A stretch of DNA of 64,000 nt, from IMG/VR virus record IMGVR_UViG_3300047554_000447, positions 22,349 to 86,348 of that record; one strand, given 5' to 3'. Below the pieces are notes generated by a model. It did not search any database, was not told the origin of the DNA, and saw only the letters and a list, made by a program, of their open reading frames with translations. A program made the translations under genes and the position numbers. Source of the DNA: a virus. Positions 2,424 to 63,938 of this stretch are shown here, one piece after another; the stretch's first letter is position 1, and every line of letters starts with the position of its first letter.

Positions 2424-3257
2424 ATGCGTAATCACTATTGGACCTGCTCTAAGTTTGCTGACTGGCTTCGTGGCACCACTAAGGGCGGAGCCAAGACTAG
2501 TGAAGGCTGGGACGAATGGGAAGCTCGTGCCAAGGCCGCATATCCCATTCGTTGGTGGCTAGCCGAAGAAGGCTTAGACTACCTACAGCGAATCGTTTAC
2601 TTTATTCCGGACACATTATACAGTGCAAAATACTATATTAATAACCGCTGGGTTACTCGTACTCATGCTCTTACTGCTCATCCTCGGGATATCAAGCCTG
2701 GTACTTGGTCAGATGTTGGGCACCGTTTTCTCCCATGTCTTTTCAATGAGCTTCAAGATTTTGTAGAAGTTGAACTAGCATGGTGGCACATTGCCTGGGC
2801 AGATCCTGCCGAAAAGGCAAAGTATAACGCACCATTCTGGGCCACTGGTTGGTTCCGTTGGCGTACTTGGCGTTGCCCACAAGCAGGTCTTGATAATCTC
2901 AAGTGGCAAAGCGAGCTTCGTCATACTGTTGACGACGGCTGGGAAGAAGGCGATCCAAATGTTGGCACACCTACTCCGCAGGCCGAAAGAGCCCTAGAAA
3001 TACTAGCACTTTACAAGTGGTGGACTGAAGTTTATCGTAATCGTCCAGATCCTCACGATGCTAGCGGGTGGAGTGAATACTGCGAACGCAAACGCGAGGA
3101 AGGCGGTAGTTTTATCGGAGAAGCCAAAGATCCAGAACTTCGTGCGTTCGGTGAGGCGGCTCTGAAGAAAACGCACGAAATTGAACAAGCATATGAAGCA
3201 GAAGACGAAGCTATGTTAATTCGTCTTATCAAAGTGAGACATGCACTTTGGACATAA
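2424..3257 (+). CDS. hypothetical Trp-rich phage protein
   Basis: long ORF; ATG at 2424 directly after upstream stop. Confidence 0.75.
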   Translation: MRNHYWTCSKFADWLRGTTKGGAKTSEGWDEWEARAKAAYPIRWWLAEEGLDYLQRIVYFIPDTLYSAKYYINNRWVTRTHALTAHPRDIKPGTWSDVGHRFLPCLFNELQDFVEVELAWWHIAWADPAEKAKYNAPFWATGWFRWRTWRCPQAGLDNLKWQSELRHTVDDGWEEGDPNVGTPTPQAERALEILALYKWWTEVYRNRPDPHDASGWSEYCERKREEGGSFIGEAKDPELRAFGEAALKKTHEIEQAYEAEDEAMLIRLIKVRHALWT

Positions 3258-13441: not shown

Positions 13442-13457
13442 TATTTATAACTAAATA
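13442..13457. promoter_or_regulatory. back-to-back late promoters
   Basis: TATAAATA on minus (13442-13449), TAAATA on plus (13452-13457). Confidence 0.7.
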
Positions 13458-14340: not shown

Positions 14341-21753
<7,413 letters not shown>

Positions 21754-36738: not shown

Positions 36739-38298
36739 ATGGAAAAAGAATACATTGTCAGTCTTAAAAAAGGTGTTGACTATGATGCATTTTGGAACGA
36801 GATTGAAAATGCATCAGACGAGGACGGGTTTGTTCCTAGTCGCAGAGTCGATATTGTAAACAATAGAGATGCTAGTCTGCGTAGTTGTCACTACGCTCTA
36901 ACTGACAGTGAAGCAGAATTACTACGACAAGATCCAAGAGTATTTGGTGTTGAGATTCCGCCACAACAGCGTGACGATCTAGTTATTGGACACAATGCTA
37001 GACAGTCTTCAAATTTTACTAAAACAACCAGTGACAGTGGAAACTATGTCAATTGGGGGTTAAGACGTTGTATTTCGCAGAGTAATCCCTACGGAACTTC
37101 TACAACAGTTTCCGGTGACTACACTTACACTCTCGACGGTACAGGCGTTGATGTTGTCATCCACGATTCTGGACTGCAAGTCGATCATCCAGAATTCACA
37201 GATGCCAATGGTACAAGCAGAGTGCAATTAATAGATTGGTATTCTGCTAGCGGTGTATCTGGAACACAATCAGTTAATCACTATAGAGACTACGACGGAC
37301 ACGGAACACACGTTGGCGGAATCGTAGCTGGAAAAACCTACGGATGGGCCAAGAACGCTAGGATATATTCTTTAAAGGTCAATGGTTTAGAAGGCTCCGG
37401 TGATACAGGTACTGGTATTAGCATCACCGACTGTTTTGATGTTGTCAAATTATGGCACAGAAATAAACCTGTCGATCCAGTCACTGGTTACAAAAGACCT
37501 ACTATAGTAAACATGAGCTGGGGATATGGCTCGTATTTTTCTAACATCACGGGTGGTTCTTATAGAGGAGTCACATGGACTGGAACATCTAGAGACACTA
37601 GCAAAGGTATGATCGGTTCTTCCTCGTTATTTGGATACAGACACTCTGTAAGAGTTTCATCAGTTGATTCCGATCTACAGGAATTAATCGACGAAGGAGT
37701 CCATGTTTGTATTGCGGCAGGTAACAGTTATCAAAAGATAGATGTATCCGGAGGTCTTGACTACGACAACTATTATACTAGCTCTTTGTATGGCAATGTT
37801 TATTACCATAGAGGATCTAGTCCTTACAGTACAGAAGCATTTATGGTAGGCAGCATTGACTCTACTTCTTATTCCTCAGCATTAGATCAAAAGAGTGTGT
37901 TTAGCGAATCGGGTCCGGGCGTTGACATCTATGCGCCAGGTTCAGACATCATGAGTTCTTGTAGCACCACTAATGCGTTTGGTGCATTATCGTATTACCT
38001 AAACAGTAGTTACAAACAAACAAACATCAGCGGAACTAGCATGGCTAGTCCTCAGGTCTGTGGTGTTGGCGCATTATACCTACAATTATATCCTCAGGCC
38101 AGCAATGAACAATTAAAGACACTAGTACACAATAGTACTGTTACTAGTACCATGTATGATACTGGCCTAGACAATGATTATACTAATCAAAGATCTATAC
38201 GAGGCGGTCCAACAAGATATCTTTACATGCCTTACAACAGCGAAGTCGGCGTAAGGACCTCTGGAAGTGTTTCCTTATTGAATATAAATTTTAGGTAA
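36739..38298 (+). CDS. subtilisin-like S8 serine protease
   Basis: triad VVIHDSG / HGTHVGG / GTSMASP, AAGN oxyanion, I9-like propeptide. Confidence 0.93.
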   Translation: MEKEYIVSLKKGVDYDAFWNEIENASDEDGFVPSRRVDIVNNRDASLRSCHYALTDSEAELLRQDPRVFGVEIPPQQRDDLVIGHNARQSSNFTKTTSDSGNYVNWGLRRCISQSNPYGTSTTVSGDYTYTLDGTGVDVVIHDSGLQVDHPEFTDANGTSRVQLIDWYSASGVSGTQSVNHYRDYDGHGTHVGGIVAGKTYGWAKNARIYSLKVNGLEGSGDTGTGISITDCFDVVKLWHRNKPVDPVTGYKRPTIVNMSWGYGSYFSNITGGSYRGVTWTGTSRDTSKGMIGSSSLFGYRHSVRVSSVDSDLQELIDEGVHVCIAAGNSYQKIDVSGGLDYDNYYTSSLYGNVYYHRGSSPYSTEAFMVGSIDSTSYSSALDQKSVFSESGPGVDIYAPGSDIMSSCSTTNAFGALSYYLNSSYKQTNISGTSMASPQVCGVGALYLQLYPQASNEQLKTLVHNSTVTSTMYDTGLDNDYTNQRSIRGGPTRYLYMPYNSEVGVRTSGSVSLLNINFR

Positions 38299-50092: not shown

Positions 50093-50656
50093 ATGGCATT
50101 ACACGAATCAATCCTAAAATTGATCAACAAAGACCCTAAAGAATCAGATACACCAAAACCAGCACCGGGTTCCAGAAGTGAGCGAGAAGCAAAGATCAAA
50201 GATAAAGCAGGTATGGTAATTTCTGTATTTGCATTGTTCTTAGCAGTGAACTCGTGGTACGGTGGCAAGTTGTCTAGCACAGTATTAAACAATACACTAG
50301 GTGCTAATAATGCTTGGGCACAATATCAAGCAAAGAACAATCGTTTAGTCAGTTATGAGATTGCCAGCAAGACCGCTAGTGATCCTGCTCTGAAGAAAGA
50401 ATTTAAAGCAGAAGCCGAGCGTATGGAGGCAGACAAGAAAGAGATTGCTGTCAATGCTCGCAAGATGGAGGCAGATCGTGAACTAGCAAAGAAGTCTAGT
50501 CCCTGGATTGGCTATGCATCAACAGCATATCAACTTGCTATCGTTGTATTATCAGCAAGTATCCTTGCAGTTAGCATGCCAATGTTCTGGGCAAGTTTTG
50601 CCGTAGCAGGTGTAGGGCTGGTATTATCAGCTAATGGTTTATTTTTATTCTTCTAA
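50093..50656 (+). CDS. DUF4337-like membrane protein
   Basis: TM, WA.YQAK, coiled coil, Q.AIVV.SAS, two C-terminal TMs. Confidence 0.7.
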   Translation: MALHESILKLINKDPKESDTPKPAPGSRSEREAKIKDKAGMVISVFALFLAVNSWYGGKLSSTVLNNTLGANNAWAQYQAKNNRLVSYEIASKTASDPALKKEFKAEAERMEADKKEIAVNARKMEADRELAKKSSPWIGYASTAYQLAIVVLSASILAVSMPMFWASFAVAGVGLVLSANGLFLFF

Positions 50657-50665
50657 GGAAATATT

Positions 50666-51436
50666 ATGGGATTTAATCCGTTTAAAAAATCAAGTTGGGA
50701 CAAAGCTGTAAAAGACACTAAAAAAGCTGTTGTCGATCCAGTAGTTAAAGAAACTACTAAGGCAGTTGATACTGTTGCCAACGAAACTACCAAGGCTTAT
50801 AATGCTACTAAAGACTTTGCAGAAAGTCTAGCTAAAGATACTACCAAAGCCGTTGCTCATACAACCGCAGTCTGTGAAAAGAATGCCAACGAATATGCCA
50901 AGCAAGGATTTGATGTCACTTCGGATGCTTGGAAACAAGGCACTGGCGAAGTTATCAAGTATACTAAAGAGGGTGTTGAATATGTAGAATTTGCGGCCAC
51001 AGAAGCTTACAAATGGGCCGATGCTAATGCCTGTTATATCGGATTAAACTTAGCACTGACTACAGGATGCGTTCTATACTTTACGCCTAAGCCAGATCCA
51101 GCAGAACCTGGTACTGTTACATCAACTGCTATCAGTTCAACATACTTAGGATATATTGCTGTACAAGGATCGAATACAGCGATGGCCATGGCTGTTGGCG
51201 AAATCATTACCAAGTCGTTCTTGCTAATTCCAGGCGTTAAAGGCAACGTCGACGAAAAGATGCTAAACAGAGTAATTGTTAATGCTATTGCAACCTGCAA
51301 TCCTGCTATGTTAACTGTGAGTCTTGCCACTCCAGCTGGTGTAGGAATATTTGTTGGTTCGGTACTTTCCCCGATCGTAGCACAATTAGTCTGTGAAAAG
51401 ACAGCACCAAAGGGCTTAACAAAAGCTATATCATAA
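50666..51436 (+). CDS. hypothetical protein with amphipathic repeats and hydrophobic C-terminus
   Basis: (K/N)(E/D)TTKA repeats; AAGGA SD. Confidence 0.7.
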   Translation: MGFNPFKKSSWDKAVKDTKKAVVDPVVKETTKAVDTVANETTKAYNATKDFAESLAKDTTKAVAHTTAVCEKNANEYAKQGFDVTSDAWKQGTGEVIKYTKEGVEYVEFAATEAYKWADANACYIGLNLALTTGCVLYFTPKPDPAEPGTVTSTAISSTYLGYIAVQGSNTAMAMAVGEIITKSFLLIPGVKGNVDEKMLNRVIVNAIATCNPAMLTVSLATPAGVGIFVGSVLSPIVAQLVCEKTAPKGLTKAIS

Positions 51437-51458
51437 TCAATATAATAGGAGCGAACAA

Positions 51459-52037
51459 ATGGCAACAGCAGAAGATTATGCAAAAATGAGTGATTCAGAA
51501 AAGAAAAAAGAAGATTGGATGAACAGTAAATGGCGTCCAATGATGGGCTGGTTATACATGGGTACCTGTTTCTTTGACTTTGTATTATTCCCAGTACTAT
51601 GGAGTTTACTACAATCTGTTAAAGGAATCCCAGTAACACAATGGCAACCGTTAACATTACAAGGTGCAGGATTGTACCACATCGCAATGGGTGCTGTACT
51701 TGGACTAGCCGCATGGGGACGTACACAAGAAAAACTAAACGGAGCAAACAATGGCGGTATACAATCAATGGGATCTAGTAGCCCAACAGCATTTGGCTCT
51801 TCGACAACAGGTGGCTTCGGTTCCGGTGGCTTCGGTGCAACACCAACGCCAGCAACAAGTAATTTTGGCGGAAGCGGAATTGGAGGCACACCTCGCCAAA
51901 GTCCAAGCTTCGGAGCGCCAGCAGTAGCTGGAACAGCAATGGTAGGTGGAGCAGTAGCCGCTACTGCTATGCCCGCTGTGAGCAGGCCAATGCCTAGTAG
52001 GCCGCCAATTGACGAAGATATGCCTGAATTAGAATGA
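51459..52037 (+). CDS. 3TM-type (GTA-like) holin
   Basis: WRPMMGW.Y, W.PLTL, LG..AWGRT.EK, low-complexity tail. Confidence 0.7.
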   Translation: MATAEDYAKMSDSEKKKEDWMNSKWRPMMGWLYMGTCFFDFVLFPVLWSLLQSVKGIPVTQWQPLTLQGAGLYHIAMGAVLGLAAWGRTQEKLNGANNGGIQSMGSSSPTAFGSSTTGGFGSGGFGATPTPATSNFGGSGIGGTPRQSPSFGAPAVAGTAMVGGAVAATAMPAVSRPMPSRPPIDEDMPELE

Positions 52038-52062
52038 CAATATGTCCATAGTGCTATATAAT
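52034..52062 (+). promoter_or_regulatory. sigma70-type promoter, leaderless
   Basis: ATGACA-N17-TATAAT, ATG 7 nt downstream, no SD. Confidence 0.6.
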
Positions 52063-52069
52063 AGTTACT

Positions 52070-52918
52070 ATGGACTATTATCAAATTTTAGGTGTTCCGC
52101 GGACTGCAAGTCAGGATGAAATTAAAAAGGCTTATCGCAAACTTGCGATGAAGCATCATCCTGACAAAGGCGGAAACGAAGAAAAGTTCAAAGAAATCTC
52201 AACTGCTTACGACATTCTAAGCAATCCAGAAAAAAGATCCGAATACGATAATCCTCAACAAGGGTTTAATCCATTTTCTCAAAACATGGGTCCGGGGTGG
52301 CACGATGTTAGCGAAATGTTTGGATTTAGTTTTGGACCTGGGTTTGAAGGGTTCACTGGCCGACCACATGCTCGAAGTCGAAGAAACCGTGACGTAACTA
52401 TCAACATCACAATAAATTTAAAACAAAGCTATCTAGGAACACAACTAGAAGCAAGATATAAAACTCCATCCGGAAAAAACAATACGGTTATAATAGATGT
52501 ACCTGCCGGAGTGACCGCAGGACAAACTATTCGATACGGTGGACTGGGAGATGACACGATACCCGATGCCCCTAGAGGAAACCTAAATGTTAATGTTATG
52601 GTTTCAGATGATGAAAATTTTAGACGTCAAGGAAACGATCTCTGTACTAGATTAGATCTAACATTAATTGAAGCAATGACCGGTTGCACAAAAACTGTTA
52701 AATCGTTAGATGGTAATTCATATCCAGTAAAAATTAGACCAGGTATACAAGCTGGCACAGAGTTTGCCAGCGAAGGTCGAGGATTTAGAGATTTAAATAA
52801 TGGACGGACTGGTAGACTTGTTATAACTATTGATGTTAATATACCAGCAGTAACTGATCCTGATATGATTAAGAAAATGGAAGATATCTATGCTGAAATT
52901 AGTAAAACATCCAAATAA
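52070..52918 (+). CDS. dnaJ: DnaJ-class chaperone (no Zn finger, CbpA-like)
   Basis: DYY.ILGV, HPD, G/F linker, C-terminal DnaJ domain. Confidence 0.92.
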
Positions 52919-53423
52919 TATATTAAAAGAAACCTTGCCTGACTTTGATTTTTCAAATCCCGTGATGGACCCTAGAGATTTGGAAGAACAAATGGTACAG
53001 TTAATGATGCTAGAAAATGGACGAGGCTTGGCTGCTAACCAAGTAGACGTTAGAGCTAGAGTATTTGTTATCAAAACAGAAAAGCTAAACGGAGTAACTA
53101 CACCATTTGCGGTTTTTAATCCAAAAATTCTAGCCGAAGACGAAGAACAAGTTTTAGACTACGAAGGATGTCTAAGTTTCCCCAATCTATTCTTACAGGT
53201 AAAACGTCCAAAACATATTGTAGTCGAATTCCTTGACAGAGACGGAAATCAGTGTATAATAAGATTAGACGACATCGATGCCAGGTGCTTCTTACATGAG
53301 TTAGATCATTTGAACGGTGTGTGTTTTACAGATGGTATTAGTAAATTAAAATTAGACCTAGCACTAAAAAGACAAAGGAAATTAAATGGTAGAACCAAGC
53401 AACGAACTTCAGTTGGTATTTGA
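52890..53423 (+). CDS. def: peptide deformylase
   Basis: G.GLAANQ, EGCLS, HELDH. Confidence 0.95.
53233..53260 (+). promoter_or_regulatory. sigma70-type promoter internal to def
   Basis: TTGACA-N16-TATAAT about 125 nt upstream of clpA. Confidence 0.6.
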
Positions 53424-55653
53424 AAAAGCAATCGACGTAGCTAAAAAATTACGTCACGAATACCTAACATTAGAGCACCTGCTGTTCGCGATGCTCTGCG
53501 AAGAATCATTTCACAAATGTGTAACTGGGTATGGTGCTGATGCAGACTTTGTTAAGAAAAGTCTTGAACATTATCTTAAAACTAAATTACAGGATATTAC
53601 CCTAGAAGTTGAAGGAGCGAAACCTAAAAAAACCCAAGCCGTTGAAAGAGTACTGAACAGAGCGTTTACACAAGTGCTTTTTAATGGTCGTCAAAAGATT
53701 GAACCAACAGATGTATTCTTAGCAATGATGAGCGAAAAACGTTCATATGCTAACTACTACATTCAACAAGCAGAAATCGACAAAGAAAAATTTGCAGACT
53801 ATCTCAATTCAGAAATGGAAGAAGTTACTGAAGAAGAGCAACAACCGAGAGATAGCCAAGCTGAGAGAGCCCTGAGGTCCTTTAGCACTAACCTTAATGA
53901 ATCAGTTAAGAAGAACAAAGTTGATCCGGTCATTGGCCGCGTTGACGAGCTTGAAAATATTGCTCTAGCATTAGGTCGCAGAAGCAAGTCGAACGTTATC
54001 CTTGTGGGGGATCCAGGCGTAGGCAAGACTGCTATCGCGGAAGGACTTGCTTACAATATCGTTAAAGGTGCTGTTCCAGACTTCCTTAAAGACTATACTG
54101 TCTATAATCTAGATGTAAGTGCTATGTTGGCAGGTAGTAAATACCGCGGAGACTTTGAAGAAAGATTTAAACTGGTTCTCAAAGCCTTAGATAAAAAAGG
54201 TAAAACTGTCTTGTTCATTGACGAAGCACATATGATCAGCGGTGCTGGCGCGGCAGGCGGAAATAGTGCTAACGATCTAAGCAATATGATGAAGCCTGCT
54301 CTTAGCAAGGGTAATATCAAGGTCATTGCTTCAACTACCTGGGAAGAGTATCGCAAGTACTTCGAAAAGGATCGTGCTCTAATGCGCCGCTTCCAGCGCA
54401 TCACGGTTGATGAGCCTAGTAAAGAAATGGCTACGCAGATCCTCAAAGGAATTCGAAAGTACTATGAGCAACATCATAATGTAAAAATTAAAGATGATGC
54501 GATTAATGCGGCTATCAAACTCAGTGTCAAATATCAAACAGATAAGAAATTGCCAGATAAGGCCATTGACTTAATTGACTGCGCATGTTCTAGATTTAAT
54601 TTAAAATCATCTGAAGATCGTGTTGTCGACGAAGCATCAATTCAGTTTGAGTTAAGCAAGATGGTGAACATTCCAGCTGAAACCATTGCCGAACAAGAAT
54701 CGAGCAATCTTGCTAATTTAGAATCTCATCTACAAGAAGAAATCTACGGGCAGGACTCTGCTATCACTGAAATCGTAGATAAAATTCTTGTTAGCCGTGC
54801 AGGACTTAAACCTGAGAATCGACCAGTGGGGGCATTTGTGTTTATGGGCCCAACTGGTACAGGTAAGACTGAAACTGCAAAGTCTCTGGCTAAGAATTTA
54901 GGCGTCAAACTTGTGCGATTTGATATGAGTGAATATCAGGAAAAACACTCAGTATCTAAGCTAATTGGTTCGCCTCCAGGTTATGTTGGCTTTGAAGAAA
55001 ATGCTGGTTTGTTGATCACTAAGATCCAAGAGAATCCTAACTGTGTTCTATTGCTAGACGAAATCGAAAAGTCACATCCTGATGTTTCAACTATCCTATT
55101 ACAGATGATGGATAACGGATTCATTACAGGATCAAATGGAAAACAAGCCGATTGCCGTAATTTAATTCTTATTATCACAACTAATGCTGGCGCACAAGAT
55201 GCTGAAAAACTTAAGATTGGTTTTGGTGAGCAAGAGAAGCAATACAGCGATGATGCTTTGAAGAAATTCTTTGCTCCAGAATTCCGCAATCGTTTAGATG
55301 CAGTTGTAACCTTTGGTAAGCTCACTAAGGAAACAATGATTAAAATCGTTGGCAAGTTTATGCTTGAAGTCCGTGAGCAGGTTAAAGAAAAAGGAATTAA
55401 AGTTAAAATCTCCGATGAAGCAATTGACTGGCTGATTGAAAAGGGCTTTGATTCTAAGATGGGTGCAAGACCGTTACAACGAGTTATTGATAAAGAAATC
55501 AAGCGTCCTCTAGCAAGAATGATGCTGTTTGGAGATCTCAAGAACGGTGGTAATTTAAATATTACTGCCAACGAAACTGGTTTGGCCCTGGCTGTTAAAG
55601 TAAAGACACCTAAGGTTGTAGAAAATGAAGATACCAAAGTCAGTCAAGACTAA
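53386..55653 (+). CDS. clpA: ATP-dependent Clp protease ATPase subunit ClpA
   Basis: Clp N-domain, GDPGVGKT, GPTGTGKT, RFDMSEY, IGF loop, GARPL; no ClpB M-domain. Confidence 0.93.
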   Translation: MVEPSNELQLVFEKAIDVAKKLRHEYLTLEHLLFAMLCEESFHKCVTGYGADADFVKKSLEHYLKTKLQDITLEVEGAKPKKTQAVERVLNRAFTQVLFNGRQKIEPTDVFLAMMSEKRSYANYYIQQAEIDKEKFADYLNSEMEEVTEEEQQPRDSQAERALRSFSTNLNESVKKNKVDPVIGRVDELENIALALGRRSKSNVILVGDPGVGKTAIAEGLAYNIVKGAVPDFLKDYTVYNLDVSAMLAGSKYRGDFEERFKLVLKALDKKGKTVLFIDEAHMISGAGAAGGNSANDLSNMMKPALSKGNIKVIASTTWEEYRKYFEKDRALMRRFQRITVDEPSKEMATQILKGIRKYYEQHHNVKIKDDAINAAIKLSVKYQTDKKLPDKAIDLIDCACSRFNLKSSEDRVVDEASIQFELSKMVNIPAETIAEQESSNLANLESHLQEEIYGQDSAITEIVDKILVSRAGLKPENRPVGAFVFMGPTGTGKTETAKSLAKNLGVKLVRFDMSEYQEKHSVSKLIGSPPGYVGFEENAGLLITKIQENPNCVLLLDEIEKSHPDVSTILLQMMDNGFITGSNGKQADCRNLILIITTNAGAQDAEKLKIGFGEQEKQYSDDALKKFFAPEFRNRLDAVVTFGKLTKETMIKIVGKFMLEVREQVKEKGIKVKISDEAIDWLIEKGFDSKMGARPLQRVIDKEIKRPLARMMLFGDLKNGGNLNITANETGLALAVKVKTPKVVENEDTKVSQD

Positions 55654-56278
55654 GAATACAACTAGATTATTTTTCAACCAATACAAGTATAAAATTGTAT
55701 TGGTTTGTGCGGCGGCGCATTTCTTTAGAGGAAATAATCTAGAGTATGCTAAAGAACGAGTTGACTTTCTTAAAGCAACTAATACTGTGCCTTCTGGGTG
55801 GAACAAAAAGGTTCTTAATAAAGAAGAAATTGACTTTGCAGAATCTCTGATTAAAAACTTTTCTAACATGTCTGATTATTCTGTAAGGGTAGAATCTCCA
55901 TTGTTGAGTTTTTATACTAACTCTGATAAGGATGCTGAACTAGTTTTAAAATTAGATACTAGTAAAGTCAAATATTTTAGCTATCCAGAATCCGTTGAAA
56001 CAGAGACTAATCTAGGAACTAACAAAGTTCTAACTAAAAAGATAGATTTTGATTACAAAATTACTATGGGCAGGACTCGTGATAGTTTTATAAGTTTCCT
56101 AGACTGGTGTGAAAATAATCCTAAGATACGCATGCCTAAACGTGCGAAACGAGATTTAGAAAGAAGTCACAGCTGGGGTGGTTCTTATTTCTACGTAAAA
56201 GACGCTAAAACGCTAACTTTAGTAAAGTTATTCGTAGGTAGTTACATAAACAAAGTAGAAAACGTAGTAAAAATCTAA
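55625..56278 (+). CDS. hypothetical protein
   Basis: LFF..YKYKI pattern; overlaps the clpA end. Confidence 0.7.
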   Translation: MKIPKSVKTKNTTRLFFNQYKYKIVLVCAAAHFFRGNNLEYAKERVDFLKATNTVPSGWNKKVLNKEEIDFAESLIKNFSNMSDYSVRVESPLLSFYTNSDKDAELVLKLDTSKVKYFSYPESVETETNLGTNKVLTKKIDFDYKITMGRTRDSFISFLDWCENNPKIRMPKRAKRDLERSHSWGGSYFYVKDAKTLTLVKLFVGSYINKVENVVKI

Positions 56279-56290
56279 AAATACAAAGAC

Positions 56291-56346
56291 TCTTAGCTGA
56301 TCCCTCTTACGATAAATATTGTAAGAGGGATTTCTTATGACTAAGA
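56291..56346 (+). promoter_or_regulatory. late promoter (TAAATA 56313-56318) in the loop of an SD-occluding hairpin
   Basis: ATCCCTCTTACGAT/ATTGTAAGAGGGAT stem, outer TCTTAG/CTAAGA. Confidence 0.8.
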
Positions 56347-56786
56347 CACTTTTAGAGTACATTGAAGAAGTTGAACTAGCTGGAGACGAAAGCGATATTT
56401 CAGCAGGTGACGGCTTTGACATTGAAATCAGCGAAGATGCTGTTATTGAAACTACTGTTATCGACTCATGGGATGACAGCATTCTTATCAGTCTAGATTC
56501 TACAGCGATCGCTATGCTGTCAGAAGCTAACATCGAACTTATCACCGAAGCAGAATATCAGGGCAGAAAAGTACCGTTAGGTAAGCCTATGAAGGGTGAT
56601 GTTAAAAAATCTAAGGTTTATGTAAAAGGCCCTAAAGGTAATGTAGTCAAAGTTAACTTTGGCGACAAAAAGTTGAGCATTAAAAAGCATATTCCAGGAA
56701 GACGTAAAAATTTCCGGGCTCGTCATAATTGCGATAATCCAGGTCCACGCTGGAAAGCAAGATACTGGTCTTGTAGGGCATGGTGA
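56337..56786 (+). CDS. putative internal head protein (acidic N-half, basic C-domain after ITE|A)
   Basis: MTKTLLEYIEE N-terminus; ITEAEYQGRKV...RARHNC...ARYWSCRAW. Confidence 0.65.
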   Translation: MTKTLLEYIEEVELAGDESDISAGDGFDIEISEDAVIETTVIDSWDDSILISLDSTAIAMLSEANIELITEAEYQGRKVPLGKPMKGDVKKSKVYVKGPKGNVVKVNFGDKKLSIKKHIPGRRKNFRARHNCDNPGPRWKARYWSCRAW

Positions 56787-56787
56787 T

Positions 56788-57123
56788 ATGAAAGTATTTG
56801 AAATCTTTAGTCAAAATATAGAAGATAAAAAGATCGACTTTGATCTTGCGGATGACGTTATCTATTTCATGAACAACGATCCGGAATTCTATAGAAAAGA
56901 ATATTTTCCATTTCTAACTAAATTCCAGCATCATTGCGATGCTGGCCGCCAGGTAACTCCAAAAGCATTTTTCCCAGTAGTTAAACGAGCAGTCGAAAAT
57001 TACAAATTAAAGTTTCCAATGAATGAACTTGAAGAAGCATTAAACGATGGACAAATTACAGAAATCTGTGAAAAACTACAAACACAAGAGCTAGCTAATT
57101 ACCACAATCAAAAAGAGAAATGA
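56788..57123 (+). CDS. hypothetical (putative internal head) protein
   Basis: MKVFEIF N-terminus. Confidence 0.65.
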   Translation: MKVFEIFSQNIEDKKIDFDLADDVIYFMNNDPEFYRKEYFPFLTKFQHHCDAGRQVTPKAFFPVVKRAVENYKLKFPMNELEEALNDGQITEICEKLQTQELANYHNQKEK

Positions 57124-57124
57124 T

Positions 57125-58423
57125 ATGTTATTAAGAGAAATGTTTGAAGATAAAGGCCAAAGTGTTGGTTTAATATTTGGTCGTTTTAATCCTCCGCATC
57201 GTGGACACAGAGCCGCTTGGGAATTAGCTAGCGAAAATGAGCATTGGTTTGTTGGCACTAACGAAAGCACACAAGGTCCTAAAGACCCACTACCATTTAA
57301 AATAAAAGTAGAAGCTATGAAAACAATCTGGCCTGATGTAGACGGTCATATCGTAGCTGATACTAGTTGGTTAACTCTTGCCAGTAAGATTTACAAAAAG
57401 TTTGGCGATGTGACTCTAAATGTCTATACTGACGAAGATTGGGTTACAAAAACTATTCAACAGTATAACGGCAAAGAAGGTCCACACGGAGTTTATAAAT
57501 TTTCAAAAATTAATCAAGTTCCTACTCCTAGACTAAGTTCTGCTACTGCTCTAAGAGCGGCTGTACAGTCTGGAGATAGAGAAGCATTTTCAAGAGCCGC
57601 AGGCGTTCCTGCAGATACAGAAGTTGCTGGACAACCATTCTTTGATCTGGTTGCAGAATATCTGTTACCTTATGCCGAAAAAGAAAAAGCCAAAGCTGAA
57701 AAGAAAAAGAAAAAAGAACCGGTAGCAACAGAAGGCGTTATCAATATGATGGAGTTAGCTAAGAAAGCTAAATCTATGCTAAACAATGGTATGTCTGAAC
57801 AGCAAGTTCAATCGGAACTTGTTAAAAGTGGCGTTCCTTCTAGACTTGCCGCACAAGCTGTTCAAATGGCACAGATGCAAGAGACTGTAGCTTTAGAAGC
57901 ACCTATCGAAATGGATCCAGCTGATCCAATGGATCCAATGATCTACGGACACGAAAAAGCTAATCCAGGAAAACTAAAATATCGAATGATGCGAGCCGAA
58001 CGTCAATTGTCTGATCTTGCTGATCGCGCTAAGAATGCCAGTCCAGCAGAATGGCAACTTATCAGCAGACAGTTCAGCGAACTAGCGATGAACATTAATC
58101 AAATTAAACACGGCCTAGAAGAGTTAGCTAAAGTAAGACGCAAAGGCGGAGTTCGTAGTCGAGGTATAGATACAATGATTGATAGCGTAAGCGAACGAGT
58201 AAGAGATCCGGAAGATTGGGATGAAGGCAATACTGAGCCTCCCAATAATTTTGCTGTTTATATCAATGGTAAGAAGTGGAAAGTATTTCCAGGCAGAGGC
58301 CGTTATGCCGATGACGAAAGAGAAAGAAAACAGTATTATGATCTTAGAGCATGGGCTCAACGTAAATCCGAAGCCACTGGTAAAAAGTGGACTGTTTCTA
58401 TTACCGGTGAATCACCAACTTAA
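57125..58423 (+). CDS. HxGH nucleotidyltransferase-domain multi-module protein
   Basis: MLLREMFE, FGRFNPPHRGH, K.PL, SSAT.LR; further modules after ATE|G, LE|A, SE|R. Confidence 0.7.
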   Translation: MLLREMFEDKGQSVGLIFGRFNPPHRGHRAAWELASENEHWFVGTNESTQGPKDPLPFKIKVEAMKTIWPDVDGHIVADTSWLTLASKIYKKFGDVTLNVYTDEDWVTKTIQQYNGKEGPHGVYKFSKINQVPTPRLSSATALRAAVQSGDREAFSRAAGVPADTEVAGQPFFDLVAEYLLPYAEKEKAKAEKKKKKEPVATEGVINMMELAKKAKSMLNNGMSEQQVQSELVKSGVPSRLAAQAVQMAQMQETVALEAPIEMDPADPMDPMIYGHEKANPGKLKYRMMRAERQLSDLADRAKNASPAEWQLISRQFSELAMNINQIKHGLEELAKVRRKGGVRSRGIDTMIDSVSERVRDPEDWDEGNTEPPNNFAVYINGKKWKVFPGRGRYADDERERKQYYDLRAWAQRKSEATGKKWTVSITGESPT

Positions 58424-58425
58424 TT

Positions 58426-58641
58426 ATGGAACTGAACGAATTAAAACGCCTAGCTGGCATAAACGAATTCAAAGGGTACATAAAGTACGACCCTGTTGAT
58501 CCTATGGGCGGTAGTAATGTTAGTCTTACCGGCAACGAGAAAGGCGAACTAATGAAAAAACATAATATTAAACCAGGTACCCCCGATTGGTTTAAGTTAT
58601 GGTTTAGCTTGCCTTTTATGACAGGGGAAAAACCTGTATGA
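58426..58641 (+). CDS. hypothetical (putative internal head) protein
   Basis: MELNELKRLAGINE; IKPGT..WF.LWF. Confidence 0.7.
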   Translation: MELNELKRLAGINEFKGYIKYDPVDPMGGSNVSLTGNEKGELMKKHNIKPGTPDWFKLWFSLPFMTGEKPV

Positions 58642-59072
58642 AAATTATAGAAATAATTTCAGAGAGCGTTGAACTCGATGAAAGAAAAAAGAAAAAACGT
58701 AAAAAAGTAAAGTCTGCGGCCTATGGTCCAGGACCTTACGGTATGTACGGAACTGCTGTAGGTTACAGCGGAGAAGGTGGTGATGGTGGCGGAGTTGGCG
58801 AGGGATTAGAAGAACATAAGAAAGGTGTTCGTGCAAGAATCTATAATAAAAAACCAAAGGCATATATCGAACCACCGAAAACTCCAAAAGTTGAAGAAAA
58901 CTTTGCGGATGGAAAAAATCCGCAGGATAAAGGTGACAGTAAGCGTCACGGAATACCAAAGGGTGCTAGTATATCACAGCTTAAAAAGATAAGAAGCAGT
59001 GACTCTGCCAGTCCACGCAAGAAACAGCTTGCACACTGGCAAATTAACATGAGACAAGGAAAACAAAAATGA
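58638..59072 (+). CDS. modular basic hypothetical (putative internal head) protein
   Basis: MKIIEIISE; modules separated by LDE, LEE, VEE. Confidence 0.65.
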   Translation: MKIIEIISESVELDERKKKKRKKVKSAAYGPGPYGMYGTAVGYSGEGGDGGGVGEGLEEHKKGVRARIYNKKPKAYIEPPKTPKVEENFADGKNPQDKGDSKRHGIPKGASISQLKKIRSSDSASPRKKQLAHWQINMRQGKQK

Positions 59073-59701
59073 GCTTTGAATTTGATTTCACTTTAGACAA
59101 ATTAACAGAATGTGTTCATAAGAACAAAGAACCAGAACTATGGTACAACGCTCTTTGTGAGTATCTACCACAGTTTCAAATTACGACTCCTGCTAGAGTA
59201 GCAGGATTTATCGCACAATGCCAACACGAAAGTTTAGATTTTACATTCCTACAAGAAAATTTAAATTATAGTGCCAAAGGCTTAATGGGAATTTTTAAAA
59301 AGTATTTCCCTACAGAGGATATAGCTAATGCTTATGCTCGTAAACCTCAAATGATTGCTAATCGTGTTTATTCGAGTCGTATGGGCAACGGAGACGAAGC
59401 CAGCGGCGACGGTTGGAGATTTAGAGGCAGAGGCATTCTTCAAATCACAGGAAGATCAAATTATACACAGTGTTCGAGAGATCTATTTCAAGATGATACA
59501 CTTGTAAACGATCCTGATCTGCTAAGAACACCAGAATACGCTGTATTAACAGCCTGTTGGTTCTGGCACAAGAACGGATTAAATCAGATCTGTGACAAGG
59601 GCGATATTGTATTATTAAGTAAACGCATCAACGGCGGTACTATCGGTTTAGAAGATCGTATTGCACATTGGAACATTGCCCTGGACTTATTTGAGGCTTA
59701 A
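59069..59701 (+). CDS. GH19 chitinase-like endolysin
   Basis: FIAQ..HES, ENLNYS, FRGRG.LQITG..NY, RINGG..GL.DR. Confidence 0.92.
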   Translation: MSFEFDFTLDKLTECVHKNKEPELWYNALCEYLPQFQITTPARVAGFIAQCQHESLDFTFLQENLNYSAKGLMGIFKKYFPTEDIANAYARKPQMIANRVYSSRMGNGDEASGDGWRFRGRGILQITGRSNYTQCSRDLFQDDTLVNDPDLLRTPEYAVLTACWFWHKNGLNQICDKGDIVLLSKRINGGTIGLEDRIAHWNIALDLFEA

Positions 59702-59702
59702 G

Positions 59703-59960
59703 ATGCTGATAAAAGAAATCGTTACAGAAACTGCAACTCCTGGATCTACAAGTGCAGGTAATATTGCGACTGTAGTCAGTCCTCATATTGCTATAGGTAA
59801 GGATAGAGGTAATAAAAGCTACACAGGCAGTCCAGGAAAATCAGGTACTAAAGCACCTCGAGTTCCCAAGGTTAAACAGGCTAAAAACGCAGACGGAACT
59901 GCTAAGAACGCACTAGATATGGATAAAAACATTTTCGGTGAAGGCGCTTTAAAACGATAA
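59703..59960 (+). CDS. hypothetical (putative internal head) protein
   Basis: ATG 59703, MLIKEIVTE|TAT.GSTSAGNIA. Confidence 0.65.
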   Translation: MLIKEIVTETATPGSTSAGNIATVVSPHIAIGKDRGNKSYTGSPGKSGTKAPRVPKVKQAKNADGTAKNALDMDKNIFGEGALKR

Positions 59961-59986
59961 ATACAACGATATTGGAGAATTCCCAA

Positions 59987-61132
59987 ATGCACGACGACTT
60001 AATGAACAGACCAGAAAATCACGAAGCCGCAATGGCCCGTGCCGACCTTTACAAACTAGCAAACTACAGCATGAAGCTGTTTAAAATGATCCACGAAGGA
60101 CAAGAGCTAGAAGGTTGGGTACAAGCTAAAATTACTAAATCAGCAGATTACATCGCATCTGTTTATCATTTCATGGAATATGAAATGAAAGTTTCAGAGT
60201 ACGGTGAAAAATTAGAAAATGCAGATGTTTACTCAGAGTCTGTTCGTAGGGCGTTTGCACAAAAATTAACCGAAGCCAAACAAAAAATGGCTAAGATGAA
60301 AAAGAAGAACGAAAAAGATGTCACTGAAGAACTTAAAAATGTTGGAGATACTGCTAAGACACACAAAGGCGGTACTGTAACTAAGACATCAACTGGTGTC
60401 AAGCACGAAAGAGATCCTGACAGTTACGACGACGGTGGTGATGATAGCGATGAAAAATCAGGCAAAGGCAAGAAGAGCCATGCTAAATCTCAGTCAGCCG
60501 CTGAAAAGAAAGCCAAGGCTCCTGCACAGAAAAAATCTAAGTCAGGTACTTGGGGTATGGAAGGTGGCGAAAAGTTTGACAACAGAAAAGTAAAAGAAGC
60601 TACAATGGTTCCATCTCCGGCAGATGGCGCAACTGCTCCTCCACCAAAAGGCAAGGATGGCAAATATCCATTCGTAGTTTCTGGACCGCACAAAGGCAAG
60701 CGTTGGAGTCCACAAACTCCAGGCCCAACAAACCCTGCATTTAAAGAATCTAGTCATCAAGAAAAGACTACAATGAAGCACGTTAAGAATCCTACAGCAG
60801 GTGAAAAGAAAGCCGCTAAGGATATCAAGCCAGGTATTGCAGGTTATAAAGATCGTGTCGACATGTTAAAGAGTGCTGAAAAAGACGGTCGTTTAAAAGA
60901 AGGTTCTAAACCAGACTTCTTAGACATGGACAAAGACGGCAACAAGAAAGAGCCAATGAAGAAAGCTCTTAAAGATAAAAAAGTTAAAGAATCATCTAAG
61001 CTAGATGTAGATAAAAACGATCCCAACTTAGATGTAAAGAAGACAGGTTCAGATACTCAAGTAACTTCTAAAACAGGTAGAGTTAGAACTTCAGTAGAAA
61101 AAGATAAAATGAGCGTAACTTCTGCGAAATAA
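59987..61132 (+). CDS. Lys-rich modular hypothetical (putative internal head polyprotein)
   Basis: TAAATA 59958-59963, GGAG SD, ATG 59987; LEGWVQ.KIT...DYI domain, then modules after LTE, VTE, VKE, FKE, LKE, VKE. Confidence 0.7.
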   Translation: MHDDLMNRPENHEAAMARADLYKLANYSMKLFKMIHEGQELEGWVQAKITKSADYIASVYHFMEYEMKVSEYGEKLENADVYSESVRRAFAQKLTEAKQKMAKMKKKNEKDVTEELKNVGDTAKTHKGGTVTKTSTGVKHERDPDSYDDGGDDSDEKSGKGKKSHAKSQSAAEKKAKAPAQKKSKSGTWGMEGGEKFDNRKVKEATMVPSPADGATAPPPKGKDGKYPFVVSGPHKGKRWSPQTPGPTNPAFKESSHQEKTTMKHVKNPTAGEKKAAKDIKPGIAGYKDRVDMLKSAEKDGRLKEGSKPDFLDMDKDGNKKEPMKKALKDKKVKESSKLDVDKNDPNLDVKKTGSDTQVTSKTGRVRTSVEKDKMSVTSAK

Positions 61133-61134
61133 TT

Positions 61135-61938
61135 ATGGACATGAAAAAAATTCTACAGGCTTTTGATGGTGCGTCTTCATCTAAGACGCCCGAAGGCTCT
61201 AATGACATGAAAAAATTCATGCAGATTGTAGAGGGCACGGGCCCTCTTAATCGTTTAACTGCCGCAGAATCAATGGCTGTACAACATTTTCAGCAAGAAA
61301 AAACAATTACACCTCCTGTATTGAATGTTGCTAAAGATGCTAAACCCAGCATGGTTGGCAAATATTTCAAAGCTATTGAACAAGAACTAGCAGAAGCTGA
61401 GCAACGATTTAATGATCAAAAATCCGTTCGTGCTAAAAAATTAGCAGAACGTGTTATTGAACGTGTAGTACCCGGACAAGAAACACCTCCAGGTATTAAT
61501 AGATTAACCGGTAAACCAATTGAGCCACAAGCACCAGCACAACCAGCACCTGCACCTGCTGCCGGTCCTAGAGGTAGCAATTTAAAATATAGTGTGCTTA
61601 AACAATTACAAGCTGGAACTTACAAAGGATTCGCTCCTAGATTAAGTCCAGAGGAATTAGATGCGGCTATCCAATGGAAAGAAGCCAACGGAGAAACTAA
61701 CGAAAGTATTAACGAAGCTGATGCTATTGATACAGTAAAGTTAGATGTTCCTTTATTATTAAGAGTAATGGAATATGCTAAAGAAGATGCTCAGGACGAT
61801 ATGGCTCTCCATGATGTTGCACAAAAATTAATTGAATTGAGTAAAGAGAACGATGTATTAACTATGGATCACTATGATGCTATAGTCGGCGATCAAGAAT
61901 TATTACCAGCACCAGATGCTGACAAGGACACACCTTAG
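61135..61938 (+). CDS. modular hypothetical (putative internal head) protein
   Basis: MDMKKIL; C-terminal D.VKLDVPLLLR.MEYAKEDA..DM.LH module after INE|A. Confidence 0.7.
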   Translation: MDMKKILQAFDGASSSKTPEGSNDMKKFMQIVEGTGPLNRLTAAESMAVQHFQQEKTITPPVLNVAKDAKPSMVGKYFKAIEQELAEAEQRFNDQKSVRAKKLAERVIERVVPGQETPPGINRLTGKPIEPQAPAQPAPAPAAGPRGSNLKYSVLKQLQAGTYKGFAPRLSPEELDAAIQWKEANGETNESINEADAIDTVKLDVPLLLRVMEYAKEDAQDDMALHDVAQKLIELSKENDVLTMDHYDAIVGDQELLPAPDADKDTP

Positions 61939-62022
61939 GACCGGTATTAAGTTACCGAAAGTGTGCGCCGGCTGCTGGCGCGAAGAAAACGATTCGCTAC
62001 CGTAGACTTCGAAAGTGAGCAC
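61929..62022 (+). ncRNA. candidate structured RNA (three stems plus pseudoknot)
   Basis: CACAC/GTGTG + CGGTA/TACCG; GCGCCG/TGGCGC; CGAAG/CTTCG + ACG/CGT; loop TTCGCT complementary to AGTGAG. Confidence 0.6.
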
Positions 62023-62042
62023 GAATTTCGGGGAAGAAAAAC

Positions 62043-62942
62043 ATGGACTTAAAATCATTAATGCAAAAGTTAGAAACACTAGATAAAAAACAAGTTCTAA
62101 CTGAATCAGTACAAGAGCAAACTGAGATGATCAACGAAACTGTTTCAACAGAAACAAAAAAAGTTACCTCAGTTGAAGAAACATTTAGTAGTGCTATTGC
62201 ACAGGCTTTATTAAAAGAATTTGGTTACAGTAACGACGAAGTTACAGAAGCAGATGATTTTAAGTTTAGTCCAGAACAAGAAAAATGGTTAGGTGGTGCT
62301 AATCGCCAAGACCCTTACATTATTGCAAGAATGCCCGGTCCTAAGCCTCCATTAACATATTTTAAAGATCCCGAAGATCAAGCTATTGCCAAACAAATGA
62401 ATATTGGCCAAGGTAACATGAACGCTATCAAAGGCGCTCTAGGAATGCAAAAAGGTGATGATCAAGTATATTCTGATCCAACTACTGCTAAACCAGCTAG
62501 CGGTCAAGCCGCACAGCCAGCTACCCCACAAGCAACTGATCAACGTGTAAATCCAGATAGTCAGCAAGGTCAAATGTTAGCAAAGCAGACTATGGGCATG
62601 GATGAGCCACAATCGGGTGTAGCAGGTGTCCAAGGTGGTAGCGAACAAGATCGTCAACTTGCCGCACAGACAGCAGGTATGGATGCTCCAGAAAAAGGAC
62701 AAGCCGCACAGCCAGCAACACCAGCAGATCAAGGAACTATTGATCCAGCTAAGGTAGCAAGATTTAAAGCATTACTAGCTAAAGCTAGCGGAGGACAGGC
62801 CGCACAACCGGCAGCTGGTGGTAAAGGTGTTACACCCCCTACTAAACCGGCAGCTCCTGGAATGGGAGGCGGTACAGGCATAACTCCTAATGCAAACACT
62901 ACAGTTACTGGTGCTCCAATAAATCCGCAAGCTAGAAAATAA
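62043..62942 (+). CDS. Gln/Ala/Pro-rich hypothetical (putative internal head) protein
   Basis: MDLKSLMQKLE; VTE|A; GQAAQPA repeats. Confidence 0.7.
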   Translation: MDLKSLMQKLETLDKKQVLTESVQEQTEMINETVSTETKKVTSVEETFSSAIAQALLKEFGYSNDEVTEADDFKFSPEQEKWLGGANRQDPYIIARMPGPKPPLTYFKDPEDQAIAKQMNIGQGNMNAIKGALGMQKGDDQVYSDPTTAKPASGQAAQPATPQATDQRVNPDSQQGQMLAKQTMGMDEPQSGVAGVQGGSEQDRQLAAQTAGMDAPEKGQAAQPATPADQGTIDPAKVARFKALLAKASGGQAAQPAAGGKGVTPPTKPAAPGMGGGTGITPNANTTVTGAPINPQARK

Positions 62943-62951
62943 GGAAAAATC

Positions 62952-63938
62952 ATGAAAGATATTATTTTAGAATCATTAAACAAAATTCGAGAAATTGAAT
63001 CTCGTCAGATTATTTCCGAAGCACTAACCCCCGAAGAACAAAAAGAATTAGATGCTCTAGCAAAAGAACTAGAACCACACATGGGTCGTTCTCCTGAAGT
63101 TGATGCGCTATTGTTACAACATCAAAAAGTAGCCAGTGGCGGCCAGGCTGCACAACCAGCTAAAGCAGGAACTCCTGCAATGGATCCCGAAAAGCTAAAA
63201 GCATATCAAACAAAATTAGGTGTCACAGCCGATGGTAAAATGGGTCCTGAAACTAAGGCCGCTATTCAAAAGTTCCAAAAAGACAACGGACTAGCAGTCG
63301 ACGGAATCATCGGACCACAAACTAGCGCGGCTTTAGATAAGCAACCGGCAGCTGGTCAAGCCGCACAGCCAGCCGCTGGTGCAAAAGGTCCAGATGCAAT
63401 TCCAGCAACTGCTGACAAGAAAAAGCCTTATTGGGTAGGCGGTACACGTTACGAGTGGAAAACAACAGGCGGGGGTCGTGGACAACCTGCTACTGGTAGC
63501 TGGCAAGTTACTGCAACGCCAGATGATAAGCTTCAGTGGAACGCTACTAGGGCGAGATCGTCTAGTGGATTTACAGGAGCAGATGACGAGTTTCAAGGTA
63601 CTCAAACAGCAAAAGCACCTGCCGCTCAACCAGCAGGTCAAACCGCTCAACCAGCAGGTCAAGCCGCACAACCAGCTCAGAGCGCACCAGCAGGAACTAA
63701 GACAACTTCCAGCACTCAAGTATCTGGTACATTGAAAATGGGTAAACCGGAAGGGCCAATCCAGTATAACGGAAAAACTGTAAATCCTGGAGATCCAGAT
63801 TATGCGGCCGCAAGTCAAGCATTAATTCAATCTCAACAGAAAGCACAGCAGTCTAGGAGCGATTGGAAATCTAAATCTACTGCATCAACGGCGCCAGTAC
63901 AACAAGGCGCTACAAACGCAGATAGAAGAGATATGTAA
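62952..63938 (+). CDS. peptidoglycan-binding (PG_binding_1) domain protein
   Basis: Q.KLG...DG.MGPET.AAI..FQ..NGL.VDGIIGPQT; GQAAQPA repeats; AAGGA SD. Confidence 0.8.
   Translation: MKDIILESLNKIREIESRQIISEALTPEEQKELDALAKELEPHMGRSPEVDALLLQHQKVASGGQAAQPAKAGTPAMDPEKLKAYQTKLGVTADGKMGPETKAAIQKFQKDNGLAVDGIIGPQTSAALDKQPAAGQAAQPAAGAKGPDAIPATADKKKPYWVGGTRYEWKTTGGGRGQPATGSWQVTATPDDKLQWNATRARSSSGFTGADDEFQGTQTAKAPAAQPAGQTAQPAGQAAQPAQSAPAGTKTTSSTQVSGTLKMGKPEGPIQYNGKTVNPGDPDYAAASQALIQSQQKAQQSRSDWKSKSTASTAPVQQGATNADRRDM
63622..63676 (+). repeat. 21-bp coding tandem repeat (AQPAGQ(T/A))
   Basis: CCGCTCAACCAGCAGGTCAA(A/G) repeated about 2.6 times. Confidence 0.75.

Follow-up and report, generated by a model that had tools for sequence, protein, structure and literature searches.

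The 64,000-nucleotide stretch of viral DNA analysed here (the window) is the final part of an 86,348-base IMG/VR record, the completeness of which is rated at 24% by CheckV, so that the full genome should measure around 360 kb. Its source is an uncultured freshwater giant (jumbo) phage of the T4 superfamily. Between positions 56337 and 63938 the window carries an array of 11 genes, all on the plus strand and almost without gaps, which are named here by their first position (Table 1). A preliminary description had read these genes as cassettes of small effectors that are packaged into the capsid, cut apart after glutamate by the prohead protease and injected. Megablast of the region against cultured phages gave no match, and Pfam, PHROGs and NCBIfam put a name on just three parts of the array, a nucleotidyltransferase, an endolysin and a peptidoglycan-binding domain, leaving the other modules unnamed.

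To place the array in context, viral contigs were scanned with the 57125 protein; this gave 127 relatives, and 80 loci were retained. The locus database comprises 88 loci, and the array is syntenic in relatives. Homologues of 30 of the 104 genes called in the contig are found in the relative G001 (mean identity 49%), and the order from the DUF4337 gene through the ClpA/B-type ATPase gene to the array is collinear between the two. Genes were called with a crude greedy open reading frame (ORF) picker, whose errors include a wrong start for 62043, for which homologues confirm the position given here, and a spurious 58-residue ORF at 61903.

Table 1. Genes and features of the array and of the DNA directly upstream; arrows mark joints or predicted cut sites, and the fourth column gives the number of loci matched among the 88 loci of the database
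Feature	Position	Strand	Loci	Description
56337	56337-56786	+	42	149-aa protein; start MTKTLLEYIEE loosely like a capsid-targeting sequence (CTS), acidic N-terminal part, ITE↓A, basic C-terminal domain
Glu71 codon, joint of 56337	56547-56549	+
Basic C-terminal domain of 56337	56550-56783	+		78 aa
56788	56788-57123	+	25	111-aa protein; leader-like start MKVFEIF...NIE
57125	57125-58423	+	80	432-aa protein in four parts
Leader of 57125	57125-57148	+		MLLREMFE
Nucleotidyltransferase domain of 57125		+		HxGH type, residues ~9-203
Glu203 codon of 57125	57731-57733	+		ATE↓G
Middle module of 57125		+		residues 204-357, then VSE↓R joint
Last module of 57125	58196-58420	+		75 aa, residues 358-432
58426	58426-58641	+	71	71-aa protein; candidate 14-residue propeptide MELNELKRLAGINE↓F
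58638	58638-59072	+	47	144-aa chain of basic mini-modules
Leader of 58638	58638-58664	+		MKIIEIISE, then SVELDE
Module R16-E59 of 58638	58683-58814	+
Module H60-E87 of 58638	58815-58898	+
Module N88-K144 of 58638	58899-59069	+
59069	59069-59701	+	55	GH19 endolysin; Pfam Glyco_hydro_19 (PF00182) E 1.7e-7; phrog_181 endolysin E 1.2e-76
59703	59703-59960	+	57	85-aa protein; basic tail, net +8
Leader of 59703	59703-59729	+		MLIKEIVTE, upstream of 59730
T10-V24 of 59703	59730-59774	+
59987	59987-61132	+	70	381-aa basic protein without leader; ~100-aa helical module and lysine-rich body
61135	61135-61938	+	11	267-aa acidic protein; start MDMKKILQAF; candidate 33-residue propeptide ending IVE↓G
62043	62043-62942	+	5	299-aa protein; start MDLKSLMQKLE; candidate 21-residue propeptide ending LTE↓S
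62952	62952-63938	+	4	328-aa protein; start MKDIILE↓S
PG_binding_1 domain of 62952	63192-63335	+		residues 81-128; Pfam E 1e-13
ATAAATA	56312..56318	+		T4-late-promoter-like core, 25 nt before 56337
ATAAATA	59957..59963	+		second core, 30 nt before 59987
Upstream block	50093-56278	+		DUF4337, GTA-holin-like, DnaJ, peptide deformylase, ClpA/B-type ATPase; directly upstream of array
ClpA/B-type ATPase	53386-55653	+		in upstream block

The N-termini of the array were compared with a strict leader pattern (M, 2-4 residues, E/D/Q, two hydrophobic residues, 0-2 residues, E), which, by eye, also fits T4 internal protein III (IPIII). Five of the 104 genes called in the 86-kb contig match it, three of them in the array (57125, 58638 and 59703), and the two matches among the ~92 genes outside the array both look unrelated. 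Shuffled N-termini gave a mean of 1.07 matches, internal Met positions match at a rate of 0.2%, and the enrichment in the array relative to the rest of the contig is significant (Fisher p = 0.008, calculated from 3/11 versus 2/93, the gene caller having given 92 outside genes). All the N-termini and tripeptide sites quoted in the preliminary description are present at the genes named. Its statement that most genes carry such leaders holds strictly for the three genes above and loosely for 56337, 56788 and 62952, and fails for 59069 and 59987; a different start (MD-hydrophobic-K...) is shared by 61135 and 62043.

Unrelated proteins encoded in the relatives' loci begin with leaders of the same kind (MKIREIFE, MKLRELFE, MRAHEFVTE, MKTFKELFE), the consensus of which spans 8-11 residues and reads M, K/R/L, I/L/A, x, E/D, L/F/I, F/I/L, followed by E or x-E. 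Across 112 distinct leader DNA sequences synonymous codon use is close to the genome-wide one (GAA for 80-89% of Glu versus 84%, with all six Leu and all three Ile codons in use), which rules out an RNA- or DNA-level cause and indicates that this common leader is selected as a peptide. The site predicted to end the propeptide is conserved in 96% of 26 homologues of 57125 (MFE↓D), in 100% of 22 homologues of 59703 (VTE↓T), in 88% of 40 homologues of 58426 (candidate site INE14) and in 83% of 12 homologues of 56788 (VFE5, a tentative cut position), whose homologues in 25 loci start M-K/R-I/L-F-E-L-F/Y. The predicted propeptide of 58638, for which few full-length homologues were found, ends in ISE↓S, and homologues of 62952 are partial and present in just four loci. 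For 61135 and 62043 the conservation of IVE33 (7/7 homologues) and LTE21 (5/5) weakly suggests that IVE↓G and LTE↓S may close longer propeptides.

Further sites of this type lie within the protein bodies. As had been proposed, the 11 array proteins are rich in hydrophobic-x-Glu tripeptides, with 61 versus a shuffle mean of 38.6 (ratio 1.58), the corresponding ratios being 1.11 in the remainder of the contig and 1.15 in G001. Taken alone, these within-contig statistics on leaders and tripeptides are moderate evidence. In the 88 related loci, nine unrelated modules were found behind a leader or inside longer proteins, and the residues preceding them (P1 being the last before the joint) follow one rule, Glu at P1 and a hydrophobic residue at P3. 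In the full set of 118 distinct contexts, which counts leaders as well, P1 is occupied 116 times by Glu, twice by Gly and never by Asp. P2 is free, and P3 holds V (29 contexts), L (23), I (22) or M (21) in 95 contexts together, with Ala in five and Ser in one. After contexts sharing more than three of the seven residues at P10-P4 had been merged, Glu occupies P1 in 64 of 68 and L/I/V/M/F occupies P3 in 52; against a background in which a fraction of 0.32 of Glu residues have a hydrophobic residue at -2, the binomial p is 8e-16. Two of the four collapsed contexts lacking Glu (RWT and SRV) are antisense ORFs, which a tightened module-B pattern removed from the 118-context set. The lack of Asp at P1 before nine unrelated modules looks like the specificity of an enzyme and not like a structural habit.

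The same modules exist in leader-bearing and in internal versions, and swaps between the two support five joints, E203↓G and E357↓R in 57125 and E15↓R, E59↓H and E87↓N in 58638. For the inner joints of 57125 the stand-alone, leader-bearing counterparts read MKIDDLLE↓GVINMM and MKLKEIISE↓RVRDPEDW. Of the 24 collapsed contexts of the last module of this protein (RVRDPEDWDEGN...), 23 carry Glu at P1, mostly as M/V-x-E; a single stand-alone version is headed by the leader MKLKEIISE. Each of the three basic pieces of 58638 (net charge +4, +6 and +10) is a separate leader-bearing gene in relatives, the NFADGK module by itself accounting for leader-bearing versions in 12 loci. The 56337 protein changes, exactly at ITE↓A as described earlier, from a net charge of -19 (residues 1-71) to +19 (residues 72-149), and its C-terminal domain is always 78 residues long and always C-terminal, behind unlike N-terminal parts, in proteins of 118-535 residues; 29 of 29 distinct joints of this domain read x-x-E↓A, with L/I/V/M/F at P3 in 23. 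The proposal that modules recur in other orders and contexts directly after hydrophobic-x-Glu is thereby confirmed in related phages, including four of the four sites named in 58638 and ITE↓A of 56337. It applies in part to 59987, which joins two genes found apart in many relatives: among 11 homologues, four of its six named sites (LTE96, VTE114, LKE305 and VKE335) are kept in 73-91%, as compared with 27% for VKE204, 18% for FKE254 and an average of 39% for other Glu residues. No leader swap was seen in the relatives' loci for 59987 or for 58426.

Both observations could in principle arise without any processing, if N-termini rich in Lys, Ile and Glu were simply what AT-rich phage genes usually begin with, and if the joints were relics of fusions that kept old leader ends. 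The window has a G+C content of 38-45%, many phage proteins begin with MK, and some fusions retain a whole internal leader, for example ...STDMKAKEFIPAS..., all of which would suit this explanation. It is strongly disfavoured by the scarcity of the leader in the other contig genes and in shuffled N-termini, and by the joints themselves, at which P3 and P1 are kept in front of nine unrelated modules though P4-P6 differ from the leaders, with Asp never found at P1; we regard it as extremely improbable.

Genes for a matching protease were sought in ten large relatives, five holding a gene of the 57125 type and the other five one of the 59703 type (69-79% identity). A gene with the Pfam domain Peptidase_S77 (gp21) adjoins a Gp23-family capsid gene in eight of the ten, including two 364-kb records rated 100% complete, and the two relatives without this pair are 37% and 41% complete. 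In G001 the array lies about 85-90 kb from the head genes. There, a 281-residue protein encoded upstream of the protease gene (L083, 2017-2862, minus strand) has a helical start and a long acidic tract, a layout that by eye resembles T4 gp67, and a gene for a 364-residue coiled-coil, scaffold-like protein lies between the protease and capsid genes.

The relatives' capsid protein contains the string YL-S/A-E↓S/T-ATAGATSAGN-V/I-ATL, which aligns with FLTE↓A of T4 gp23, cut after residue 65; when the relatives' capsid proteins are aligned with T4 gp23 and gp24, the columns of T4 L63 and E65 do not vary, and a pattern search detected the string in 69 of 80 further capsid loci (11 missed). In the 59703 family the same string stands directly behind the leader and is followed by a basic tail; in the 59703 protein itself, T10-V24 copy what would be the mature N-terminus of the relatives' capsid protein. 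By BLASTP, the 59703 protein and the G001 capsid protein are identical at 11 and similar at 19 of 21 positions across the site aligned with the gp23 cut (E 3e-5), with a local-alignment z of 6.2, and seven genomes hold both a 59703-type gene and a capsid gene with the motif. The family comprises 1418 clusters, none of which has a name, and where a member is fused behind another protein the joint is again hydrophobic-x-E. Judged from its sequence, a 62-residue protein of cyanophage S-SM2 (L110, 8019-8207), with a Glu-ended leader, a stretch like the capsid N-arm and a basic tail, is the cyanophage counterpart of this family. It matches the capsid N-arm of its own lineage, the Kyanoviridae (z 3.1-4.6 versus 0.4 for the G001 capsid protein), so that the mimicry seems to follow lineage in these two lineages. 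The N-terminal stretch of T4 gp23 is described in PMC9546572 as thought to lie inside the prohead, touching the scaffolding core before expansion, and by analogy the copy in 59703 may be an address or a protease-docking element. Our searches turned up no earlier description of a small basic protein that copies the capsid site.

Contact with the core would also be expected if the array proteins were accessories of the prohead core or scaffold that shape or size the head, being cut and having their pieces expelled before DNA packaging like T4 gp22, gp67 and gp68 instead of reaching the host. T4 core proteins are reported in PMC9026906 to be cut into several pieces that mostly leave the head, they share with the array a leader-like start (MLKEQLIAE↓A in gp22) and several internal cut motifs per chain, the region copied by the 59703 family is the one thought to contact the core in the T4 prohead (PMC9546572), and the acidic N-terminal part of 56337 resembles acidic core proteins such as gp67. 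However, strong basicity (net +4 to +19) marks most of the mature pieces predicted here, in common with the T4 internal proteins that remain on the DNA, and a scaffold would have little use for an enzyme or for a domain that binds peptidoglycan. Whereas the T4 core genes are conserved morphogenetic genes located by the protease, the array is highly variable in gene content among relatives and, in G001, far from the head genes, and the relatives own gp22- and gp67-like genes beside the protease. We therefore consider a scaffold function unlikely.

The closest resemblance is to the T4 internal proteins IPI, IPII, IPIII and Alt, which carry a CTS and are processed by gp21. In the T4 record the leaders read MKTYQEFIAE↓A (IPIII and IPII), MKTFKEF...ITE↓A (IPI), MAKINELLRE↓S (gp24) and MLKEQLIAE↓A (gp22). 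According to PMC9026906, L/I-x-E is the motif after which gp21 cuts, the 10 N-terminal residues of IPIII are enough for targeting to the head, T4 propeptides span 7-65 residues, and core proteins are cut into several fragments. Both systems have short leaders ending in hydrophobic-x-Glu on non-homologous, mostly basic mature parts, a gene set that varies among relatives, a late-type promoter motif upstream and a gp21-family protease (here in relatives); the T4 endolysin gene e adjoins ipIII and ipII, and an endolysin gene lies inside the array. Unlike in T4, one gene of the array can hold three or four cargo modules split by further cut motifs, modules are reshuffled among relatives at these motifs, and Val and Met are as frequent at P3 as Leu and Ile, in contrast to the published L/I. 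The predicted cargo also includes an HxGH nucleotidyltransferase, a peptidoglycan-binding protein and the capsid-site copy. At the level of sequence, the array fits the T4 internal-protein/CTS type, with its N-terminal propeptides of roughly 7-19 residues that follow the CTS pattern.

A different machine acting on the leaders and Glu joints, such as a cytoplasmic Glu-specific protease for polyprotein maturation or a ClpA/B-type unfoldase with DnaJ, would explain the pattern with no packaging into capsids. The array is immediately preceded by genes for a ClpA/B-type ATPase, DnaJ and peptide deformylase, the position of the Clp gene is retained in G001, a subtilase gene (Peptidase_S8) is present at 36739-38298, and the 78-residue basic domain occurs in podoviruses outside such a context. 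Yet the motif fits the specificity given for gp21 in PMC9026906 as well as the relatives' capsid site aligned with the T4 gp23 cut, and the leaders match T4 CTS sequences. No Glu-specific protease besides Peptidase_S77 was found, although no systematic search was made for one. Subtilases are not known for Glu specificity, and no support was found for the subtilase as processing enzyme. This explanation appears very unlikely to us. It is conceivable that the block from DUF4337 to ClpA/B provides chaperone help in cargo loading.

Taken together, these results make it probable that the array genes encode head cargo that is processed and packaged like the T4 internal proteins in a T4-superfamily jumbo phage of ~360 kb, and the earlier reading of the array as a whole is partly supported. 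Several points weigh against this interpretation. The gp21-type protease assumed earlier, present beside a gp23-type gene in relatives as indicated above, has no counterpart in the window's own 86-kb record, which matches neither Peptidase_S77 nor Gp23 of Pfam; the record being 24% complete, missing head genes amount to silence and not to absence. The strict leader is confined to 3/11 array genes, the endolysin and the 59987 protein having no leader. Hydrophobic-x-Glu tripeptides abound in proteins at large (1.8 per 100 residues in the rest of the contig), so that single sites within bodies prove nothing, and the Glu at a joint could be where the fold of each module begins, as its first residue, instead of a cut site. 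Some contexts of module 358-432 carry Met at P2 rather than P3, and the ATE↓G joint of 57125, which is supported by a leader swap, has Ala at P3. Finally, the 78-residue domain is not capsid-specific by itself, since it is also present in podoviruses and in a Nitrosopumilaceae archaeal spindle-shaped virus (H46, H47). In the Pelagibacter podophage HTVC111P it stands alone with the start M-A-K-Y (L108, 1498-1779), in Roseobacter phage records it is labelled 'HVA1 family protein', and Kyanoviridae myoviruses have it after LTE↓A or LEE↓A, beside the cytidylyltransferase gene. As the domain stands alone elsewhere, it is a general phage domain that T4-like phages have apparently put behind a pro-part.

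Comparable leaders are found more widely. In Kyanoviridae S-SM2, Melnitz, HTVC008M and C48C1 they stand on the homologous cytidylyltransferase and neighbouring proteins. For the Agrobacterium jumbo phage Atu_ph07, a T4-related jumbo phage with ClpB and DnaJ, PMC6102473 reports 131 virion proteins by mass spectrometry, 29 of which are encoded in the cluster of coding sequences (CDS) 31-76. Within its first 50 kb, CDS 53-62 (L192, 39484-49507) all start with M-R/K-W-x-Q-L-T/N/I-E, eight of the ten products having ~250-270 residues, and CDS 43 starts with MRLIDLLE. These tagged CDS 53-62 fall inside the cluster rich in virion proteins, a comparison made at the level of the cluster (PMC6102473); the wording of the leader differs from that in the array, and no module homology was found. 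In phiKZ, 201phi2-1 and SPN3US, many head proteins are cut after Glu by a gp21-related protease, several of them at more than one site, as stated in PMC9026906. The motif of such inner-body and ejection proteins is S/A-x-E, in contrast to the contexts described here, in which V/L/I/M occupies P3 in 95/118 and Ala or Ser in six, and relatives of the array carry T4-type Gp23 and Peptidase_S77 genes. No module homology with phiKZ-type phages was seen, one 201phi2-1 protein being listed with E 0.37 in the fold search of module 358-432. Searches of the literature recovered the T4 concept and the variation of internal-protein genes among T-even phages, and found neither strings of modules nor a capsid-site copy; those on CTS in cyanophages or variable T4-like cargo gave T4 reviews alone, and those for cyanophage virion data on the 'cytitidyltransferase' returned nothing.

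If the array proteins are head cargo, the leader of 8-11 residues would bind the scaffolding core and bring the protein into the prohead, where the gp21-type protease would cut after each exposed V/L/I/M-x-Glu. Such cutting would remove the leader and part the modules, giving basic peptides, freeing the 78-residue basic domain from its acidic pro-part and releasing the folded 75-residue domain and the HxGH nucleotidyltransferase. The acidic pieces would exit the head, and the basic ones would remain on the DNA and could enter the host along with it. We infer these steps, from core binding and cutting to retention in the head, injection and a role in the host. Delivery to the host and any anti-defence role are much less certain than processing and packaging, and the DNA-condensing, anti-defence and host-takeover roles proposed earlier are guesses.

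The capsid-targeting tag of T4 is known from a few small coliphage proteins. A broader model, which we put forward as a tentative possibility, is that T4-like jumbo and marine phages use a plug-in grammar, by which insertion after V/L/I/M-x-Glu in a gene with a leader would suffice for a module of any kind to be carried into the prohead and freed by the head protease, so that cargo would evolve by pasting of modules at the protease site. In this model the address of the 59703 family would be its copy of the capsid site and N-arm, which may anchor the basic DNA-binding tail to scaffold or shell or time capsid cleavage by competition, and the DNA would be accompanied by an NMNAT-like enzyme in finished form. 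Should the reading of the array proposed here be correct, abundant uncultured freshwater and marine T4-like phages would use tag and head protease as a general system for delivery and polyprotein processing, with modules swapped at the cut sites. A sequence rule would then predict which giant-phage genes of unknown kind reach the virion, the diversification of cargo sets would be explained, and natural tags and linkers would be on hand for loading proteins into phage heads.

With regard to individual modules, residues ~9-203 of 57125 match Pfam CTP_transf_like (PF01467; E 3.3e-4, 21.3 bits versus a cut-off of 21), PHROG cytidyltransferase families and, below its cut-off of 27.7, TIGR00125 (23.9 bits). 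The translation contains PPHRGH and SSATALR, which we take to be the HxGH motif and the second, SS-x-T-x-x-R-like motif of HxGH nucleotidyltransferases. On the Pfam match and both motifs, we assign this domain to the HxGH nucleotidyltransferase superfamily; the 57125 protein had no credible match among sequences of solved structures. The AlphaFold2 (AF2) model of module 358-432 (pLDDT 83) has a strand-strand-helix-strand fold, for which the best PDB match of Foldseek had E 0.9 and BFVD gave uncharacterised phage proteins alone. The 78-residue domain of 56337 matches phrog_7595, and its AF2 model is poor (pLDDT 56). The 59069 protein had been counted among the cargo genes; judged from its sequence, it is an ordinary GH19 endolysin outside the scheme of leaders and joints. 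Its homologues share a conserved leaderless start, MSF-E/T-F, and among the more distant relatives the endolysin gene is found several kb upstream of the array.

The placement of ATAAATA fits late transcription, although it is only a motif; the earlier label of late genes agrees with the copies at 56312 and 59957, which are its sole basis. The heptamer is depleted in the 64 kb (eight copies versus ~21 expected), with plus-strand copies at 3254, 8061, 24502, 40614, 56312 and 59957 and minus-strand copies at 13442 and 33346. Five of the six plus-strand copies lie 25-40 nt ahead of gene starts (8087, 24529, 40654, 56337 and 59987), fibre genes among them. The full T4 late-promoter octamer TATAAATA has just two copies, both on the minus strand, and the pattern is seen for the shorter ATAAATA alone.

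Elsewhere, the window encodes giant tail-fibre genes, a DNA ligase and queuosine-type genes. The 519-residue subtilase (Pfam Peptidase_S8, E 5e-31; 36739-38298, plus strand) lies among tail-fibre-like genes, with an Mtd_N-type fibre gene at 34695 and an Ig-domain protein gene at 38303 as neighbours. Upstream of the window, a 73-residue ORF (G000:C1, ~14548-14769) is one of the two chance matches to the leader pattern outside the array, and its start resembles translation initiation factor IF-1, by eye only. At the end of the array, the 62043 and 62952 proteins both carry low-complexity repeats of the GQAAQPA type, and 62952 is the last gene before the contig end, so the array may run on past it.

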